64,000 nucleotides of DNA from the sequence record PQ471460.1. The stretch is one strand, 5' to 3'. This DNA is from Escherichia phage vB_EcoM_JE01. The stretch's first letter is position 1. Each line of letters opens with the position of its first letter. Shown piece by piece: positions 1,412 to 8,560 of this stretch. Position numbers and translations under genes: made by a program. Under the pieces are notes generated by a model. That model made no database searches. It saw only the letters and a program-made list of their open reading frames with translations, and was not told the DNA's origin.

Positions 1412-1600
1412 ATGAAAATTGAAGCACTTAATCAAGAAGGAAATATCTACGTCATCATTAATGGTGATTTTTTCGTCGACATGGATGAAGTTACTAGTGA
1501 AGAACTTGTAGAACTTCTTAAGAAACGTTATGATATGTGTGATGAAGCTGCAACTCATATGGCGTGTGCAATATTCTCTCTTTCATATGTGGTGGAATAA
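1412..1600 (+). CDS. hypothetical small protein
   Basis: 62-aa ORF; SD AAGAGGAG before ATG; lies downstream of the early promoter. Confidence 0.45.
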
Positions 1601-1782
1601 TGATTAGTATCGAACAAGCAGATAAAATTAAAGAATTGGTAGCTTTAATTCGCAAAGCAGATGAGGAACGCATTAACTTTGCCTTATCAGGTATTGAAGA
1701 ATTTGAAGCTAAAGTTGATAATGCTTTAGAAGCTTTAGATATGTTTCTTGATGAAATTATCGATCACAATACGAGAGTTTAG
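1600..1782 (+). CDS. hypothetical small protein
   Basis: 60-aa ORF, ATGA overlap with upstream ORF. Confidence 0.45.
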   Translation: MISIEQADKIKELVALIRKADEERINFALSGIEEFEAKVDNALEALDMFLDEIIDHNTRV

Positions 1783-1783
1783 T

Positions 1784-1978
1784 ATGCTAACACGTGAACA
1801 GTTTGAAAAAATCATTAAATTAGCACGTGATATTGAAATAGATTCATATCAATTGGCAGTTGAGCACTGTGAAGGATATTCATACGACGGTATAGAAGCA
1901 GCTAAAAAGGATTTGGATAAATCCAAAGCTAAGTTAGTTCAATATCTTGAAATGATTAGGTGGAATAATGAAAACTGA
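1784..1978 (+). CDS. hypothetical small protein
   Basis: 64-aa ORF in tandem small-gene run. Confidence 0.45.
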   Translation: MLTREQFEKIIKLARDIEIDSYQLAVEHCEGYSYDGIEAAKKDLDKSKAKLVQYLEMIRWNNEN

Positions 1979-2099
1979 AAAGCAGATGTTTTTAATGAAG
2001 CTAATTGAAGAATATGCTAATGCAGTTTCTGACTATGAGTATTCTGCTCGGGAAAGAGGTACAGCTTTCGCAAAGGAAGAAATGAAAAATTATGGTTGA
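1968..2099 (+). CDS. hypothetical small protein (43 aa)
   Basis: Short ORF overlapping upstream stop; below ORF-track cutoff. Confidence 0.3.
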   Translation: MKTEKQMFLMKLIEEYANAVSDYEYSARERGTAFAKEEMKNYG

Positions 2100-2144: not shown

Positions 2145-2174
2145 GTTTACAAGTTGGCAAGGTTATGATATAGT
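2145..2174 (+). promoter_or_regulatory. T4-type early promoter with stem-loop
   Basis: GTTTAC ... TATAGT at 18-nt spacing; imperfect inverted repeat agttggcaag/cttgtcaact around the -10. Confidence 0.5.
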
Positions 2175-2309
2175 AATCTTGTCAACTGTCAAGGAGAAGA
2201 GAATGAAAGTTTTGTTTGTTGTGTATGTGATGATTCAATATAATTACCCAATGTTTACTTATAATCTAGTGAACAACATTATTGATATTATTCAAAGGAG
2301 TATGTAATT

Positions 2310-2867
2310 GTGAGTGAGTCGAAGAGAATCAATATGAAACGATTAGTACTAGAAGTTAGTTCACTTTTTGGTGAATTGGCTATAGAAAAAGTAAATAATA
2401 TGTATCGTTTGACGCAAGAAGACGATATGCTATATTTTACGCCTAGCGAAATTATTCATTTAACCCAAATTGAAAAACCTTACACTGATAAAATTGTAAG
2501 CATCAATGATGAGCATAAAATTCATTTTTATTCTTTATGCCCAGGATTTAACATTGAAAGCGAGTCAATATGCTTATCAATTAATAATTGGGATAATTTT
2601 ATAACTAAAATTAAATATTTTTATTATTCTAATGAAAGAAAACATAGTTTAAAATGGCTTAAAAATTGCAATGCTATTATTACTAACGCTTGTGATCGGA
2701 ATGATGAAACTGTTTTAAATGTATCAAAATGTTATGAAGAGGGAGATGTCTTAACTATTCGTCAAATTGATGATTTTCGATCACATATTGTCACATTTAC
2801 CAAAGACGAAGCTATTGCGCTAAAGACTTATCTTGATTCTGTCATTCCAACTATGATTTCAAAGTGA
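2310..2867 (+). CDS. hypothetical protein, paralog of the next ORF
   Basis: 185-aa ORF (GTG start after AAGGAG); shares GFNIE-E motif and C-terminal ...AIALKTYLDSVIPTMISK with the next ORF (...AEAMIKYLTTVTPSMKG). Confidence 0.6.
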   Translation: MSESKRINMKRLVLEVSSLFGELAIEKVNNMYRLTQEDDMLYFTPSEIIHLTQIEKPYTDKIVSINDEHKIHFYSLCPGFNIESESICLSINNWDNFITKIKYFYYSNERKHSLKWLKNCNAIITNACDRNDETVLNVSKCYEEGDVLTIRQIDDFRSHIVTFTKDEAIALKTYLDSVIPTMISK

Positions 2868-2873
2868 GGAAAT

Positions 2874-3395
2874 ATGTTTATTTCAAGTGAAAGTGGTTTA
2901 ATTCGTGTTGAATTTAAAAATGACATCTTCCTTATTCAAGGAGATGATATTATTAAAATGAGTTATGATGAAATCAAGAAAATTTGTCATGCTCTTGAAA
3001 GTCATGGAAAGGAAAATGCTACTATTAATATAGGTGATTTATGGGTGACACTTTATGAAGTATCCGAAGGATTTAATATTGAAGATGAAAATAACATTTT
3101 AGCTATTGATAAAAGAAGTGATTTGTTTGATGTATTAAAAGTTTATGAACAATCAAACGGTGGAAGAAAAGCCGTATTGATTTATCAAAAACCGCATTCA
3201 TGTGGAACTGCTTCAATCATTTCAAATATTGAAGATGAAACTGATACCTATATGTGTGTTTTGAAAGCTGGTGGTGACCGTCATCCGGATTTTATTTCTA
3301 TTCGTCAAAACAATGGAGAAATTTCATTATCAAAATCAGAAGCTGAAGCTATGATTAAGTATTTAACAACTGTTACACCTTCAATGAAAGGATAA
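2874..3395 (+). CDS. hypothetical protein, paralog of the previous ORF
   Basis: 173-aa ORF; SD GAGGAAA; shared motifs with 2310-2867. Confidence 0.6.
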   Translation: MFISSESGLIRVEFKNDIFLIQGDDIIKMSYDEIKKICHALESHGKENATINIGDLWVTLYEVSEGFNIEDENNILAIDKRSDLFDVLKVYEQSNGGRKAVLIYQKPHSCGTASIISNIEDETDTYMCVLKAGGDRHPDFISIRQNNGEISLSKSEAEAMIKYLTTVTPSMKG

Positions 3396-3397
3396 TT

Positions 3398-3859
3398 ATG
3401 ATTATTAATGAAAACTCTTGGCATTATAAATTATTCAAAATGTTTAATGATGAATGGAAACGGCCTAAGACACTATGCGCGTATTTTTGGTCTATTGTTA
3501 TTCCTACATTTTTCGTTTCTTTTTTCGGATGTACTATACTCGCAGGTCTAACTATCATCTGTGCAGAAATCATACAGAAATGGCTTATTTTTGGTAGTTT
3601 ATGGACTCTTATTCCATCAGCATTTGTACTTGCCATTTTGCTTGTTTTACTTATTATTGGTTCATTTGTTATTCCTGCACAACTGCATGAAAAATATAAA
3701 GATTATAAATGGAAAAAGGATTATGCTTTACATGTAGAAAATATTGATAGGGCGTATAAAGGTTTACCTCCTATTCAACCCAAGAAGTCTATTATCGTCG
3801 AATTTTTAAAAGCTCGTAAAGCTAAAGTATGTCCTGTTATTGAATATAAGGCTGAATGA
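3398..3859 (+). CDS. predicted integral membrane protein
   Basis: 153 aa with at least three long hydrophobic segments. Confidence 0.6.
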   Translation: MIINENSWHYKLFKMFNDEWKRPKTLCAYFWSIVIPTFFVSFFGCTILAGLTIICAEIIQKWLIFGSLWTLIPSAFVLAILLVLLIIGSFVIPAQLHEKYKDYKWKKDYALHVENIDRAYKGLPPIQPKKSIIVEFLKARKAKVCPVIEYKAE

Positions 3860-4845
3860 TGAAAACAGTAATGAAAAGCTATTTTGGTAGTCATCTTTAT
3901 GGAACTTCTACTCCAGAATCTGATGTAGATTTTAAAGAAATCTTTGTTCCTCCTGCTCGCGATATTCTTATCGGAAATGTTAAAGAGCATATGAGTAAAA
4001 ACACTAAAGATGATATTGACCATGAACTATACAGTCTTAAGTATTTCTTTAAATTAGCAGCAGACGGTGAAACTGTAGCATTGGATATGCTTCACACTCC
4101 ACCTGAACTAGTAGTTAAATCTGATTTGCCTGATGTATGGAAGTTTATTCAAGACAATCGTTCACGGTTTTATACGACTAACATGAAATCCTATTTAGGA
4201 TATGTCCGCAAGCAAGCTTCTAAATATGGTGTTAAGGGTTCTCGTTTGGCCGCATTGCGTGATGTATTGAAAGTAGTTAATCAAATCCCCGATCAGTGGG
4301 TTGATTACCGAGAAGATGGAACACAAGGACAACGTCGTACTAAAATTGCAGATATTAAACACCGTCTTCCAGAGAACGAGTTCTGTGAATGGGTATTCCA
4401 TAACCACGAGAAAACAGGTCCTCAAACGTTCTATACTGTTCTTGGACGTAAGTACCAAACCACCTTGTCTTTAATCGAGCTCAAGCAATCTCTGAATAAG
4501 CTCGATGCGGAATATGGTGAACGTGCTCGTAAGGCTGAAGCTAATGAAGGTATTGACTGGAAAGCTCTGAGTCATGCTTATCGCGCAGGGTATCAATTGA
4601 TGGAAATCTACCAAACAGGTGATTTGGCGTTCCCATTGCGCGAAGCCTCTATCATTAAGCTGATTAAAGCCGGTGAATTACCATTTAAAGAAGTTCAAGA
4701 ACTTCTTGAAGATACTGTTGATTTGGTTGAAGTCCTAGCCATCCAGGCAGCTAAGAACGGTATGCCTGATAAGGTAGACATGAAGTTCTGGGACAAGTTC
4801 GTTGAAGAGGTATATCTTGAAAACCACCGAAGTTATTATAAATGA
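3856..4845 (+). CDS. predicted nucleotidyltransferase (Pol-beta superfamily fold)
   Basis: 329 aa; N-terminal GS-x10-DVD (YFGSHLYGTSTPESDVDFKEIF) typical of Pol-beta-type NTases, with a further acidic residue about 50 aa downstream (VALDMLH). Confidence 0.65.
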   Translation: MMKTVMKSYFGSHLYGTSTPESDVDFKEIFVPPARDILIGNVKEHMSKNTKDDIDHELYSLKYFFKLAADGETVALDMLHTPPELVVKSDLPDVWKFIQDNRSRFYTTNMKSYLGYVRKQASKYGVKGSRLAALRDVLKVVNQIPDQWVDYREDGTQGQRRTKIADIKHRLPENEFCEWVFHNHEKTGPQTFYTVLGRKYQTTLSLIELKQSLNKLDAEYGERARKAEANEGIDWKALSHAYRAGYQLMEIYQTGDLAFPLREASIIKLIKAGELPFKEVQELLEDTVDLVEVLAIQAAKNGMPDKVDMKFWDKFVEEVYLENHRSYYK

Positions 4846-4847
4846 TA

Positions 4848-4872
4848 GGGAGCCTTCGGGCTCCCTTTTTTG
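4848..4872 (+). terminator. rho-independent terminator (UUCG hairpin + T-run)
   Basis: gggagcc-ttcg-ggctccc TTTTTTG. Confidence 0.7.
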
Positions 4873-5438: not shown

Positions 5439-6407
5439 ATGAAAACTGTAACTATCAATAAGGGTATCTACTTCGGTAAAGAAATCTCTGGAACTTTTGA
5501 GCTCTTAGGCGAATGGTTCCCAGATAATGCTCCGGTAGATGCACAGGGAGATGGTAAAGTTTTTGTTGAAATTGACGGTAAACGTCGCGGTGTTTGGGTT
5601 TACAAATCAGATATTTCATATGATGGTGTAAAAGTTGAAGAAGTTAAAGAATCATATGAAGATATGAAAACCCGCATTAATAAAAGATTTAATGTTATGG
5701 GAATGATGACGAATGGTATTATTAATGGAAATATTCGTTCATTGATTATCTCTGGCGCAGCAGGTATTGGTAAAACGTATTCTTTAGATAAAGCTTTAAA
5801 TAAAGCAAATGATAATGGATACATTGAATATAAAAGCATTAACGGTAAAATCTCTGGTATTGGTCTTTATGAGCAGCTTTGGAATAATCGTGAAGAGAAT
5901 TCTGTCCTTTTGATTGATGATGTGGATGTTTTCTCTGATATGGACATTCTTAATCTTCTAAAAGCTGCTCTGGACACTGGAGAGACCCGTAAAGTCTGCT
6001 GGAGTACTGCGTCTTCTTACTTAGAAGAAAAAGGCATTGAGCGTGAGTTTGAATTTAAAGGAACGATTGTTTTTATCACAAACGTTGATATTGACCGCGA
6101 ATTAGACCGTGGTACTAAACTTGCTCCACACCTACAAGCATTAGTGTCCCGCTCAGTTTATTTAGATTTGGGTGTTCATACTAATGAAGAAATTATGGTC
6201 AGGGTTGAAGATGTTATTCTTTCAACTGACATGATGCAAAAGCGCGGTCTTTCTGATGAAGAAACTTATAAAGCATTATCATGGATGAAAGTTAATGTTA
6301 ATCGTTTACGCAATGTTTCACTGCGTACTGCTCTTTATCTTGCTGACTTTATTATGACCGACAAAAACGGTTGGGAAGAAATTGCTGAAACGGTATTATT
6401 AAAATGA
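5439..6407 (+). CDS. predicted P-loop NTPase (AAA-like ATPase)
   Basis: 322 aa; Walker A GAAGIGKT and Walker B LLIDDVD; SD GGAG before ATG. Confidence 0.65.
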   Translation: MKTVTINKGIYFGKEISGTFELLGEWFPDNAPVDAQGDGKVFVEIDGKRRGVWVYKSDISYDGVKVEEVKESYEDMKTRINKRFNVMGMMTNGIINGNIRSLIISGAAGIGKTYSLDKALNKANDNGYIEYKSINGKISGIGLYEQLWNNREENSVLLIDDVDVFSDMDILNLLKAALDTGETRKVCWSTASSYLEEKGIEREFEFKGTIVFITNVDIDRELDRGTKLAPHLQALVSRSVYLDLGVHTNEEIMVRVEDVILSTDMMQKRGLSDEETYKALSWMKVNVNRLRNVSLRTALYLADFIMTDKNGWEEIAETVLLK

Positions 6408-7123
6408 AAAAATATTTTACTATCTATAAAACTGAAATATTAAATTTAAAGACAGGTATTAAGAAATACTATTATGGTCGACATATAACTAATAACATCA
6501 ATGATTCGTATGTTGGTAGTGGAAATTATATAGAACGTGTAAAAGTGTCAAATGACCACATATTATCAAAAACGGTTTTAGAAGTTTTTGATAATTATGA
6601 TAAAATGGTACAAGCTGAAATATTATATATCATGGCAGGTAAATTGAAATATGGAAAAAACTGTGTTAACCTGTCATACGGGGGTGAAGGAGGAAAGGTT
6701 GCAGATGAAACTAGGATAAAATGCAAAAAGCATTCTATAAATTTATGGAAAAATCCTAATCATATACAGCATATGAAGAAAAAGATGAAAGAGGTTACAT
6801 CCACGCCGGAAGCTAAATTAAACACTTCAATAAAAACTTCGCAACGATATAAGGACCCAGTTTTTGTTAGAAAAGTTAGTAATATTATTAAAAAGAAACT
6901 AAGCAATCCTGCAGTAAAAGAAAAGCATATTAATGGAATTAAAGCTGCAAAGCGTTCTCATTTAACTATATGGCAGTATGAAGATGAATTATTCGAGCTT
7001 TGGAAAGAAACTAAATATGGATGGAGAAAATTTACAAAGGAAGCTATAAAACACGGATATCCAAATGAACCGTATCGTAGTATGGTATCAACTTTTCAGA
7101 AAAGACATTTAGAAGAATCCTAA
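6404..7123 (+). CDS. putative Seg-like (degenerate GIY-YIG) homing endonuclease
   Basis: 239 aa, lysine-rich and AT-rich; N-terminus FTIYKTEILNLKTGIKKYYYGRH resembles GIY-(10-11)-YIG; C-terminal basic repeats typical of DNA-binding modules. Confidence 0.5.
   Translation: MKKYFTIYKTEILNLKTGIKKYYYGRHITNNINDSYVGSGNYIERVKVSNDHILSKTVLEVFDNYDKMVQAEILYIMAGKLKYGKNCVNLSYGGEGGKVADETRIKCKKHSINLWKNPNHIQHMKKKMKEVTSTPEAKLNTSIKTSQRYKDPVFVRKVSNIIKKKLSNPAVKEKHINGIKAAKRSHLTIWQYEDELFELWKETKYGWRKFTKEAIKHGYPNEPYRSMVSTFQKRHLEES
6404..7123 (+). mobile_element. putative free-standing homing endonuclease gene
   Basis: Same ORF as above; compositionally distinct from neighbours. Confidence 0.4.
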
Positions 7124-8152: not shown

Positions 8153-8560
8153 ATGAAACGGTTGATAATTAAAAGATTGAATTTATTGATATGTTGTTTA
8201 TGTATAGTAGTTGCATATGGTTATTACGCAATTAATGATTATATGCACTATAAAGATTATGATGTTACTGTAGTTAATACTATTACAGGAACTCAAGGAA
8301 AGGGGTCTAGTTTATCGTTTATTGCCGTATATGAACTCAAAGACGGTTATAGATTTAGTGAATATATTTCCCCAGAGATGTATTCTTCAATAGAAAAAGG
8401 TGATAATATTACTGTAAGTTTACGTCCTTTCGACGTAAAACAGACACTGTTTGATAATATTGTTTGGTTCTTTGGGATGGTATTAGTTCAATCCGTGTGT
8501 GGCGCTTATGTAGTTTGTTCAATCATATTCTGTGTATTTAGTAAAATTGAAATTGAGTGA
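8153..8560 (+). CDS. predicted membrane protein
   Basis: 135 aa with N- and C-terminal hydrophobic helices. Confidence 0.55.
   Translation: MKRLIIKRLNLLICCLCIVVAYGYYAINDYMHYKDYDVTVVNTITGTQGKGSSLSFIAVYELKDGYRFSEYISPEMYSSIEKGDNITVSLRPFDVKQTLFDNIVWFFGMVLVQSVCGAYVVCSIIFCVFSKIEIE

Follow-up and report, generated by a model that had tools for sequence, protein, structure and literature searches.

Two adjacent open reading frames of Escherichia phage vB_EcoM_JE01 (sequence record PQ471460.1), termed ORF1 and ORF2 below, raise three questions: whether they are truly related, how they came to lie side by side, and what their products might do. The window, i.e., the whole stretch of DNA that we analysed (64,000 nucleotides, nt), derives from a Tequatrovirus (T4-like) genome and matches Tequatrovirus genomes at 96-97%, with its + strand oriented as T4 early transcripts are. 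A sequence-only reading of this DNA had described two adjacent ORFs of 185 and 173 aa that share an internal GFNIE(S/D)E motif and a near-identical C-terminal pattern, (K/S)EA-A(L/M)-(T/K)YL--V-P-M, and had taken them as the outcome of a local duplication followed by divergence. Both ORFs are present at these lengths on the + strand (Table 1). The reading that we favour as a whole, and consider reasonably probable, is that they encode two deeply diverged paralogs of the T4 MobD.1 family that lie in an early operon, would each consist of three PC4-like repeats and would dimerize through repeat III, with a protein partner or mimicry slightly favoured over DNA or RNA as ligand.

Table 1. Features of the ORF1/ORF2 locus, with positions (nt) in the window
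Feature	Position	Strand	Basis or remark
Early promoter, sigma-70 type, TTTACA-17-TATAGT with upstream TG	2146..2174	+	Consensus scan; sequence kept in T4
mobD.2-like small ORF, 34 aa from ATG, first gene of unit	2203..2307	+	T4 mobD.2 alignment; PHROG 3515, E=3.7e-22
ORF1, T4 MobD.1 (Y05I) ortholog, 185 aa, GTG start	2310..2867	+	tblastn, synteny, Pfam
ORF1 N domain (predicted repeats I+II)	2343-2633	+	
GFNIESE motif, ORF1 residues 79-85	2544..2564	+	Predicted beta3-beta4 hairpin of repeat II, by alignment with ORF2 model
ORF1 C domain (predicted repeat III)	2646-2855	+	
GATGAAACTG, 10-nt identity, ORF1 copy	2703..2712	+	Crossover point in natural ORF1/ORF2 chimeras
C-terminal motif of ORF1, TKDEAIALKTYLDSVIPTM	2799..2855	+	Predicted helix of repeat III
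ORF2, second MobD.1-family paralog, 173 aa	2874..3395	+	Pfam, tblastn, AF2 model
ORF2 N domain	2877-3158	+	
GFNIEDE motif, ORF2 residues 66-72	3069..3089	+	Predicted strands E67-70 and E75-78, repeat II
ORF2 C domain	3177-3386	+	
GATGAAACTG, ORF2 partner of 2703-2712	3234..3243	+	
C-terminal motif of ORF2, SKSEAEAMIKYLTTVTPSM	3330..3386	+	Predicted helix of repeat III (H154-167)
Membrane-protein gene, RB69ORF104c-like, ORF1/ORF2 operon	3398..3859	+	PHROG 944
NrdC.11 nucleotidyltransferase (RlaP family), last gene of unit	3856..4845	+	
Intrinsic-terminator-like hairpin, then T run, closes unit after nrdC.11	4847..4866	+	

Two start codons are candidates for ORF1 (GTG at 2310 or ATG at 2334); since T4 has an ATG opposite the GTG and a GCG where ORF1 has its internal ATG, the upstream start is favoured. 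The ribosome-binding site of ORF2 (GAGG) overlaps the stop codon of ORF1. The GFNIE(S/D)E motif occurs in both ORFs, the family consensus at this site being G-x-N-x-E-x-E. The C-terminal motif is likewise real in both, but the residue before EA is D or S rather than the K or S previously given; the K common to both copies sits one position before this D/S.

We compared the two proteins over their whole length. BLASTP aligned ORF1 and ORF2 at 29% identity over 175 aa (E=8e-12), and their Smith-Waterman score of 120 compares with 31 ± 5 for 2000 shuffles (z=16.9, Gumbel p ~1e-10), the N halves (p ~4e-7) and the C halves (p ~3e-5) each being significant separately. Both proteins also scored far above the curated gathering cut-offs of the Pfam families PF24449 T4_y05I_N (139.1 bits for ORF1 and 111.2 bits for ORF2; cut-off 24.9) and PF24448 T4_y05I_C (75.2 and 82.4 bits, respectively; cut-off 27), and both matched PHROG 1502; NCBIfam gave no useful match for either. 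Apart from the low overall identity, nothing favours the view that the shared motifs reflect chance between unrelated AT-rich ORFs, or that the ORFs are not genes. Chance similarity is ruled out by the shuffle test and the common Pfam membership; moreover, both ORFs are kept in hundreds of genomes with dN/dS well below 1 and give confident AlphaFold2 (AF2) models, and we regard that view as having practically no likelihood. The alignment statistics and family matches firmly support the paralogy that had been proposed, with homology extending over the whole length of ORF1 and ORF2.

ORF1 is 84% identical to T4 MobD.1 at the protein level (tblastn), within syntenic DNA that is ~93% identical, and has the same position and early promoter. 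ORF2 has the identical two-domain architecture and exceeds the cut-offs of both Pfam models, yet is only 27-29% identical to T4 MobD.1. The pair occupies the syntenic position between rI/mobD.2 and nrdC.11 of T4-type phages, in the gene order tk, rI.1, rI, rI.-1, mobD.5 to mobD.2, ORF1, ORF2, membrane protein, NrdC.11, and the 1.5 kb around it matches ~490 phage records at 90-97% identity. These data demonstrate the homology, family membership and synteny of ORF1 and ORF2. With regard to transcription, a start ~7 nt past the -10 hexamer of the promoter listed in Table 1 precedes the mobD.2 ATG by 22 nt, and the offset in T4 is identical (coordinate 57954 versus mobD.2 start 57932). This identity of spacing establishes that the promoter corresponds to Pe57954, a named T4 early promoter (PMC6024815). 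The genes that follow are tightly packed, with stops and starts that overlap or nearly so. Promoter, gene packing and terminator thus place the pair in one early operon, i.e., the Pe57954-like promoter, mobD.2, ORF1, ORF2, the membrane-protein gene, NrdC.11 and the terminator.

T4 itself has a single copy only, and mobD sits where ORF2 and the membrane gene stand in the window. In a DNA alignment, collinearity of T4 and the window spanned mobD.2 and mobD.1 and ended 17 nt into ORF2; from there until the start of nrdC.11 the two were unrelated. The intervening T4 DNA holds mobD, an HNH homing endonuclease, which uses the ribosome-binding site, ATG and first five codons of ORF2. These results demonstrate that T4 lacks ORF2 because both this gene and the next one gave way to the mobD homing-endonuclease cassette. 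T4-type mobD (at least 95% identity) was found in only 47 phage records and ORF2, by tblastn, in 443, indicating that the pair is usual in the genus and T4 the exception. The search for homologs and copy number in related phages that the sequence-only reading had suggested found ORF1 and ORF2 each in hundreds of Tequatrovirus genomes and a single copy in T4 and in Dhakavirus JS98. In addition, ORF2 carries the annotation 'similar to mobD.1; RB32ORF097c' in the GenBank record of T6, where the gene after it is noted as 'replaces mobD'; the paralogy of ORF1 and ORF2 is therefore already on record.

Existing labels at this locus call for correction. Many RefSeq orthologs of ORF1, as well as T4 mobD.4, carry the label 'molybdopterin-guanine dinucleotide biosynthesis protein MobD'. 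We rejected this label, as Pfam and NCBIfam returned no Mob/MoCo match; it most probably derives from the gene-name prefix mobD. A GenBank label of 'putative SSB' is likewise without sequence support. The practical gain of our analysis is annotation: hundreds of T-even genomes say 'hypothetical' or bear the wrong molybdopterin label, where a better one would be MobD.1-family protein with predicted PC4/PUR-like three-repeat fold. Moreover, T4 is atypical at this locus, and work on T4 alone misses both the second paralog and the membrane gene because mobD displaced them there.

The family to which the pair belongs is small. A word-index homolog search retrieved close relatives only; when 1.84 billion representative proteins were searched exhaustively with a profile, only 29 clusters emerged, showing that the family is truly small. 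All genomic contexts examined were those of T4-type phages, with the family gene between rI and nrdC.11, and the MobD.1 (Y05I) family is confined to these phages; a BFVD search returned mainly the family itself, together with weak Bacillus-phage matches. Full-length relatives are few (Tequatrovirus, Gaprivervirus TH15 and unplaced metagenomic clusters), along with Dhakavirus JS98, in which a full-length single copy at the same locus is directly followed by the membrane gene. About a dozen clusters consist of stand-alone C-domain proteins (67-87 aa), whose helix, (F/L)(T/S)K-EA-AL--YL--VIP(T/S)MK, is as in the full-length proteins. Genes for such proteins lie in the rI-nrdC.11 interval of Kagamiyamavirus EcS1, Moonvirus Moon and Tegunavirus phiR1-RT. 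Moon carries two of them in tandem, independent of the ORF1/ORF2 pair, indicating that tandem pairs arose more than once in the family. Furthermore, metagenomic contigs contain a single chimeric gene that joins the N part of ORF1 to the C part of ORF2, with the crossover at GATGAAACTG; these natural chimeras show that the C domains can be exchanged as modules. The pair as such is ordinary and already known, the family being present in Pfam and PHROGs and in hundreds of sequenced phages.

As to the origin of the pair, the tandem position makes the proposed local duplication and divergence plausible, but a recent event is ruled out: synonymous sites between ORF1 and ORF2 are saturated (dS ~1.5), and no nucleotide similarity is left except the one 10-nt identity. 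In neighbor-joining (NJ) bootstraps, Tequatrovirus ORF1 joined single-copy MobD.1 proteins (Gaprivervirus, P0048 cluster) in 177 of the 200 replicates, and ORF1 grouped with ORF2 in only 13. Saturated dS and NJ topology together indicate that the event is ancient or that ORF2 was acquired laterally, leaving three scenarios: an old duplication of which one copy was lost in other lineages, a duplication after which ORF2 evolved rapidly, or lateral insertion of ORF2 beside a resident copy.

The view that the Tequatrovirus lineage duplicated the gene in situ and in tandem, and that the copies then diverged in the ordinary way to become redundant or subfunctionalized, agrees with the arrangement of the two genes, which are adjacent, co-oriented and 6 nt apart and have identical domain order and similar lengths. 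Another tandem paralog array (DUF7438) lies in the same operon and, together with the Moonvirus C-domain pair, indicates that the region is prone to duplication; ORF2 is also marginally closer to Tequatrovirus ORF1 (27-30%) than to the proteins of other genera (23-27%). The NJ topology and the loss of synonymous and nucleotide similarity speak against it, as do the Dhakavirus JS98 locus, with its single copy and directly adjoining membrane gene, and the C-domain helix of ORF2, which is more like that of the stand-alone C-domain proteins of other genera than like that of ORF1. We consider duplication in situ possible, at somewhat less than an even chance.

The separation of ORF1 from ORF2 in the NJ replicates would fit a xenologous ORF2, i.e., a distantly related member of the MobD.1 family that came from another T4-type phage and recombined beside the resident MobD.1. 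The region is a hot spot of mosaicism: ORF1 alleles within the genus fall into classes of ~90% and ~48% identity with a recombination junction ~40 codons before the stop, the T2 allele of ORF2 is only 54% identical to that of the window, and mobD replaced two genes in T4. However, neither the 1.84 billion representatives nor the phage collection yielded a donor lineage in which ORF2 is the only copy, and long-branch attraction between ORF2 and P0062 could by itself produce the NJ topology; such an acquisition seems rather unlikely to us.

Whatever their origin, both genes are maintained. Among Tequatrovirus orthologs, dN/dS was 0.15-0.38 for ORF1 and 0.05-0.21 for ORF2, indicative of purifying selection on both, and each copy is conserved at 90-99% across hundreds of Tequatrovirus genomes. 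Viable T4 deletions cover nrdC.11-mobD.3 (PMC9825161), T4 lacks ORF2, and in T2 both ORF1 and ORF2 are in fragments (two independent records); neither is thus essential in the laboratory. Both are accessory early genes, dispensable and subject to purifying selection.

We then considered the structure of the encoded proteins. With the family alignment as input, AF2 predicted three beta-sheet-plus-helix units for ORF2 (pLDDT 86.5, and >90 in the N domain); the models come from shallow alignments of 23-29 sequences, and the full-length model reached a pTM of only 0.59, relative domain placement being uncertain. The C domain modelled alone gave a pLDDT of 86.9. These models place GFNIE-E in repeat II, where it forms the beta3-beta4 hairpin, and make the C-terminal motif the long helix of repeat III. 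The best structural match of the N domain was to repeats I-II of Drosophila Pur-alpha (score 10.1; 98 residues aligned, i.e., the whole N domain), followed by SsgA (8.3), MRP2 (8.3) and Whirly p24 (7.1). The C domain matched the KhtT N-domain (7.2), human PURA repeat III (6.5), PC4 homologs (5.3-6.0), Borrelia Pur-alpha (5.8), YdbC (5.3) and the T5 PC4 homolog (4.4), and its monomer model matched type II chains. On predicted structure, the proteins thus fall into the PC4-like fold superfamily (PC4/Whirly/PUR/MRP). Comparison by hhalign within the family related repeat I to repeat III (92% probability, E=6e-7), which backs the repeat model at the sequence level; the same method detected no sequence relation of repeat II to repeats I and III. 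Neither ORF matched the PUR, Whirly or PC4 Pfam families even at E<=1, and the family profile searched against all PDB sequences returned only pyruvate kinase (E=0.17) and hence no link to a solved structure. The likeness to PUR, Whirly and PC4 is therefore one of fold and architecture, not membership of these families, and it may be convergent.

The predicted architecture bears on oligomeric state. PC4, the T5 PC4 homolog, YdbC and Borrelia Pur-alpha are of type II, in which single repeats of two chains pair with helix swapping and the helix packs on the partner's sheet; repeat III of Pur-alpha likewise pairs with a second repeat III, and a lone PC4-like repeat is unlikely to be stable (PMC7549692). 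By analogy, repeats I and II of the phage proteins would pack as one intramolecular domain bearing the GFNIE-E hairpin, and repeat III would be a half-domain, with (T/S)K-EA-A(L/M)--YL--V-P-M as its helix, that takes a second repeat III as partner to complete its fold. As repeat III would need such a partner, the proteins are expected to act as dimers, and dimerization via repeat III is most likely the way in which MobD.1-family proteins work. The existence of stand-alone C-domain proteins is as expected if the C module dimerizes on its own. Across the entire family, stand-alone proteins included, no segment is better conserved than the C-terminal motif, and packing of the helix on the partner's sheet would offer a simple reason. 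T4 and Dhakavirus JS98 keep one copy under constraint, so homodimers must suffice there; ORF1-ORF2 heterodimers might form where both copies exist.

What the N domain might bind is less firmly indicated. These proteins are markedly acidic: pI is 4.2-5.8 in the full-length members and, with two exceptions, in the stand-alone C-domain proteins, and net charge in the family ranges from about +2 down to -22; the N domain of ORF2 has a charge of -10, and most conserved charged positions in it are acidic. In addition, several well-scoring matches of the same fold, i.e., SsgA, KhtT-N and COMM domains, are not annotated as nucleic-acid binders. Together, these observations make us lean towards a protein partner or mimicry, such that binding of a basic protein or nucleic-acid mimicry appears slightly more likely than direct binding of DNA or RNA.

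The alternative is that the proteins are classical ssDNA/RNA-binding factors, which would melt or coat nucleic acid and so modulate early transcription, replication or mRNA fate. Pfam labels the family 'putative transcription factor', and one GenBank annotation reads 'putative SSB'. The best structural matches bind nucleic acid (Pur-alpha, MRP1/2, Whirly, PC4, Sub1, YdbC, Bpur and the T5 homolog), and the PC4-like fold serves nucleic-acid binding in all kingdoms (PMC7549692). Several aromatic positions are conserved, as are K154 and R144, and the neighbouring genes have links to nucleic acids, namely an RlaP-type nucleotidyltransferase, Phage_tudor and, in EcS1 and Moon, a DksA/TraR zinc finger. 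The acidity of the full-length proteins counts against it; this is not decisive, since Whirly proteins bind ssDNA mostly via stacking and hydrophobic contacts and acidity therefore does not exclude nucleic-acid binding. On balance, we hold a classical nucleic-acid-binding role to be rather unlikely.

A more far-reaching version of the mimicry reading, which we regard as improbable, starts from the point that only eukaryotic Pur-alpha had been reported to combine a type I with a type II domain (PMC7549692). The phage proteins would then be the first non-eukaryotic case of the full Pur-alpha architecture (type I and II in one chain), on an acidic scaffold; the tandem proteins of Tequatrovirus and Moonvirus would heterodimerize via repeat III and act early as nucleic-acid mimics or adaptors that neutralize a host nucleic-acid-binding protein or defence, the divergent mosaic alleles of the N domain reflecting an arms race. 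Among the PADLOC defence and counter-defence profiles, only ORF1 had a match, a weak one to PDLC02690 that falls short of significance (E=0.0021, 15 bits), and ORF2 had none. We found no functional study of any MobD.1/y05I family member in the literature.

Nothing here is surprising enough to alter current views; our analysis contributes a structural interpretation of the family, its evolutionary setting and a dimer model that can be tested. If the dimer model were true, the family would show the Pur-alpha domain plan in compact viral form and provide an entry to early-gene function; if the idea of a protein partner were true as well, it could expose a new host-takeover or counter-defence activity.

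Of the known systems, Pur-alpha (PURA) offers the closest parallel in domain plan: its repeats I and II form an intramolecular domain and its repeat III a dimerization domain, and the phage proteins have three predicted repeats. Unlike Pur-alpha, however, the phage proteins are viral, acidic and only ~175 aa long, lack flanking regions and detectable sequence homology to it, and have five predicted strands in repeat III. With the C-terminal domain of human PC4, fungal Sub1, YdbC of L. lactis, Bpur of Borrelia and the T5 PC4 homolog, the resemblance goes no further than the fold; these are swapped homodimers that bind ssDNA or RNA, whereas the phage proteins are known from monomer models. SsgA and SsgB of actinomycete cell division use a Whirly-like fold for protein-protein interaction, SsgB forming trimers and recruiting FtsZ, but they have no sequence relation to the phage proteins and no third repeat. 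Likewise, trypanosome MRP1/MRP2 and the plant Whirly proteins are basic RNA or ssDNA binders that form tetramers and lack repeat III.

In several metagenomic contigs, the ORF1/ORF2 pair is replaced by a single gene of 179 aa in which the N part of ORF1 is fused to the C part of ORF2 (contig L009, 2501-3040; also contigs L010 and L011). This chimeric gene arose by a crossover at the 10-nt GATGAAACTG common to both paralogs. Within the genus, we found very unlike ORF1 allele classes, at about 90% and about 48% identity. More specifically, the first ~140 residues of ORF1 from phage vB_EcoT_BCU-2 are diverged (dS about 0.9; L007 952-1494 versus window 2334-2867), its last ~40 residues match the window type identically, and ORF2 of the same phage is 92% identical to the window ORF2, therefore placing a recombination junction inside repeat III. 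The ORF2 allele of phage T2 shares only 54% identity with that of the window. Both paralogs are broken into short fragments in two independent T2 genome records (L003 2052-3019; L008 1038-2117), and in this laboratory phage the splitting appears to be genuine pseudogenisation.

Features located in the window
Feature	Window position	Strand	Evidence or remark
mobD.4, mobD.3 and mobD.2a counterparts	1600-2099		three small ORFs, each matching Pfam DUF7438
TTGACA-16-TATCAT	2192-2165	minus	sigma-70 consensus scan; overlaps early promoter of opposite strand
GGAG in ribosome-binding sites of mobD.2 and ORF1	2193-2196 and 2297-2300		
GATGAAACTG	2703-2712 and 3234-3243		10-nt identity of ORF1 and ORF2; crossover point of chimeric gene
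239-aa ORF	6404-7123		PHROG 314 (homing endonuclease), E=1.4e-30

More distant relatives carry the C domain in genes of its own: Citrobacter phage Moon encodes two stand-alone T4_y05I_C genes in tandem, Moon107 and Moon106 (L014 1643-2448). A Phage_tudor gene lies directly 5' of the family member in Moon, in EcS1 (L004 3229-3728), and in the T6-type phages (L005 684-1494, T6); the window lacks this gene. In JS98, MobD.1 is immediately preceded by a DUF7189 gene; EcS1 also has one, located two genes upstream of its C-domain gene. Residues 16-38 of ORF2 match DUF7189 weakly (E=1.7e-4, under the cut-off).

The DUF7438 ORFs constitute a second tandem paralog array within the operon region of ORF1 and ORF2; T6-type phages have four copies, one more than the window. 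Across the region scanned, the site closest to the sigma-70 consensus (11/12) is on the minus strand, where it has no obvious gene to drive, and it may be a chance outcome of the near-palindromic TTGTCAACTGTCAA. The motif GGAG is the target of the T4 RegB endoribonuclease. The ribosome-binding site of ORF2 reads GAGG.

In RefSeq, 'molybdopterin-guanine dinucleotide biosynthesis protein MobD' is the name given to the MobD.1 orthologs and to T4 mobD.4 (L001 4235-4768; L002, T4, 8353-8535; many RefSeq records), an identity for which we found no Pfam or NCBIfam support. The label most probably derives from the gene-name prefix mobD, and it is now propagating among records.

The 239-aa ORF, which had no match in Pfam or NCBIfam, is flanked by nrdC.10 and nrdC.9. 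Because nothing but a short spacer separates these two genes in T4 and EcNP1, the ORF is probably an inserted free-standing homing endonuclease.

In T4, ORF2 and the membrane-protein gene are replaced by the mobD homing-endonuclease cassette (window 2874-3859 versus L002 6430-7283). The right junction of this cassette is the nrdC.11 start; the left junction falls 17 nt inside ORF2, and thus the MFISS of ORF2 is also the start of T4 MobD. ORF2 occurs in 443 phage records versus only 47 for T4-type mobD. These observations suggest that, in mixed infections, ORF2 and the membrane-protein gene could be excluded by mobD homing.
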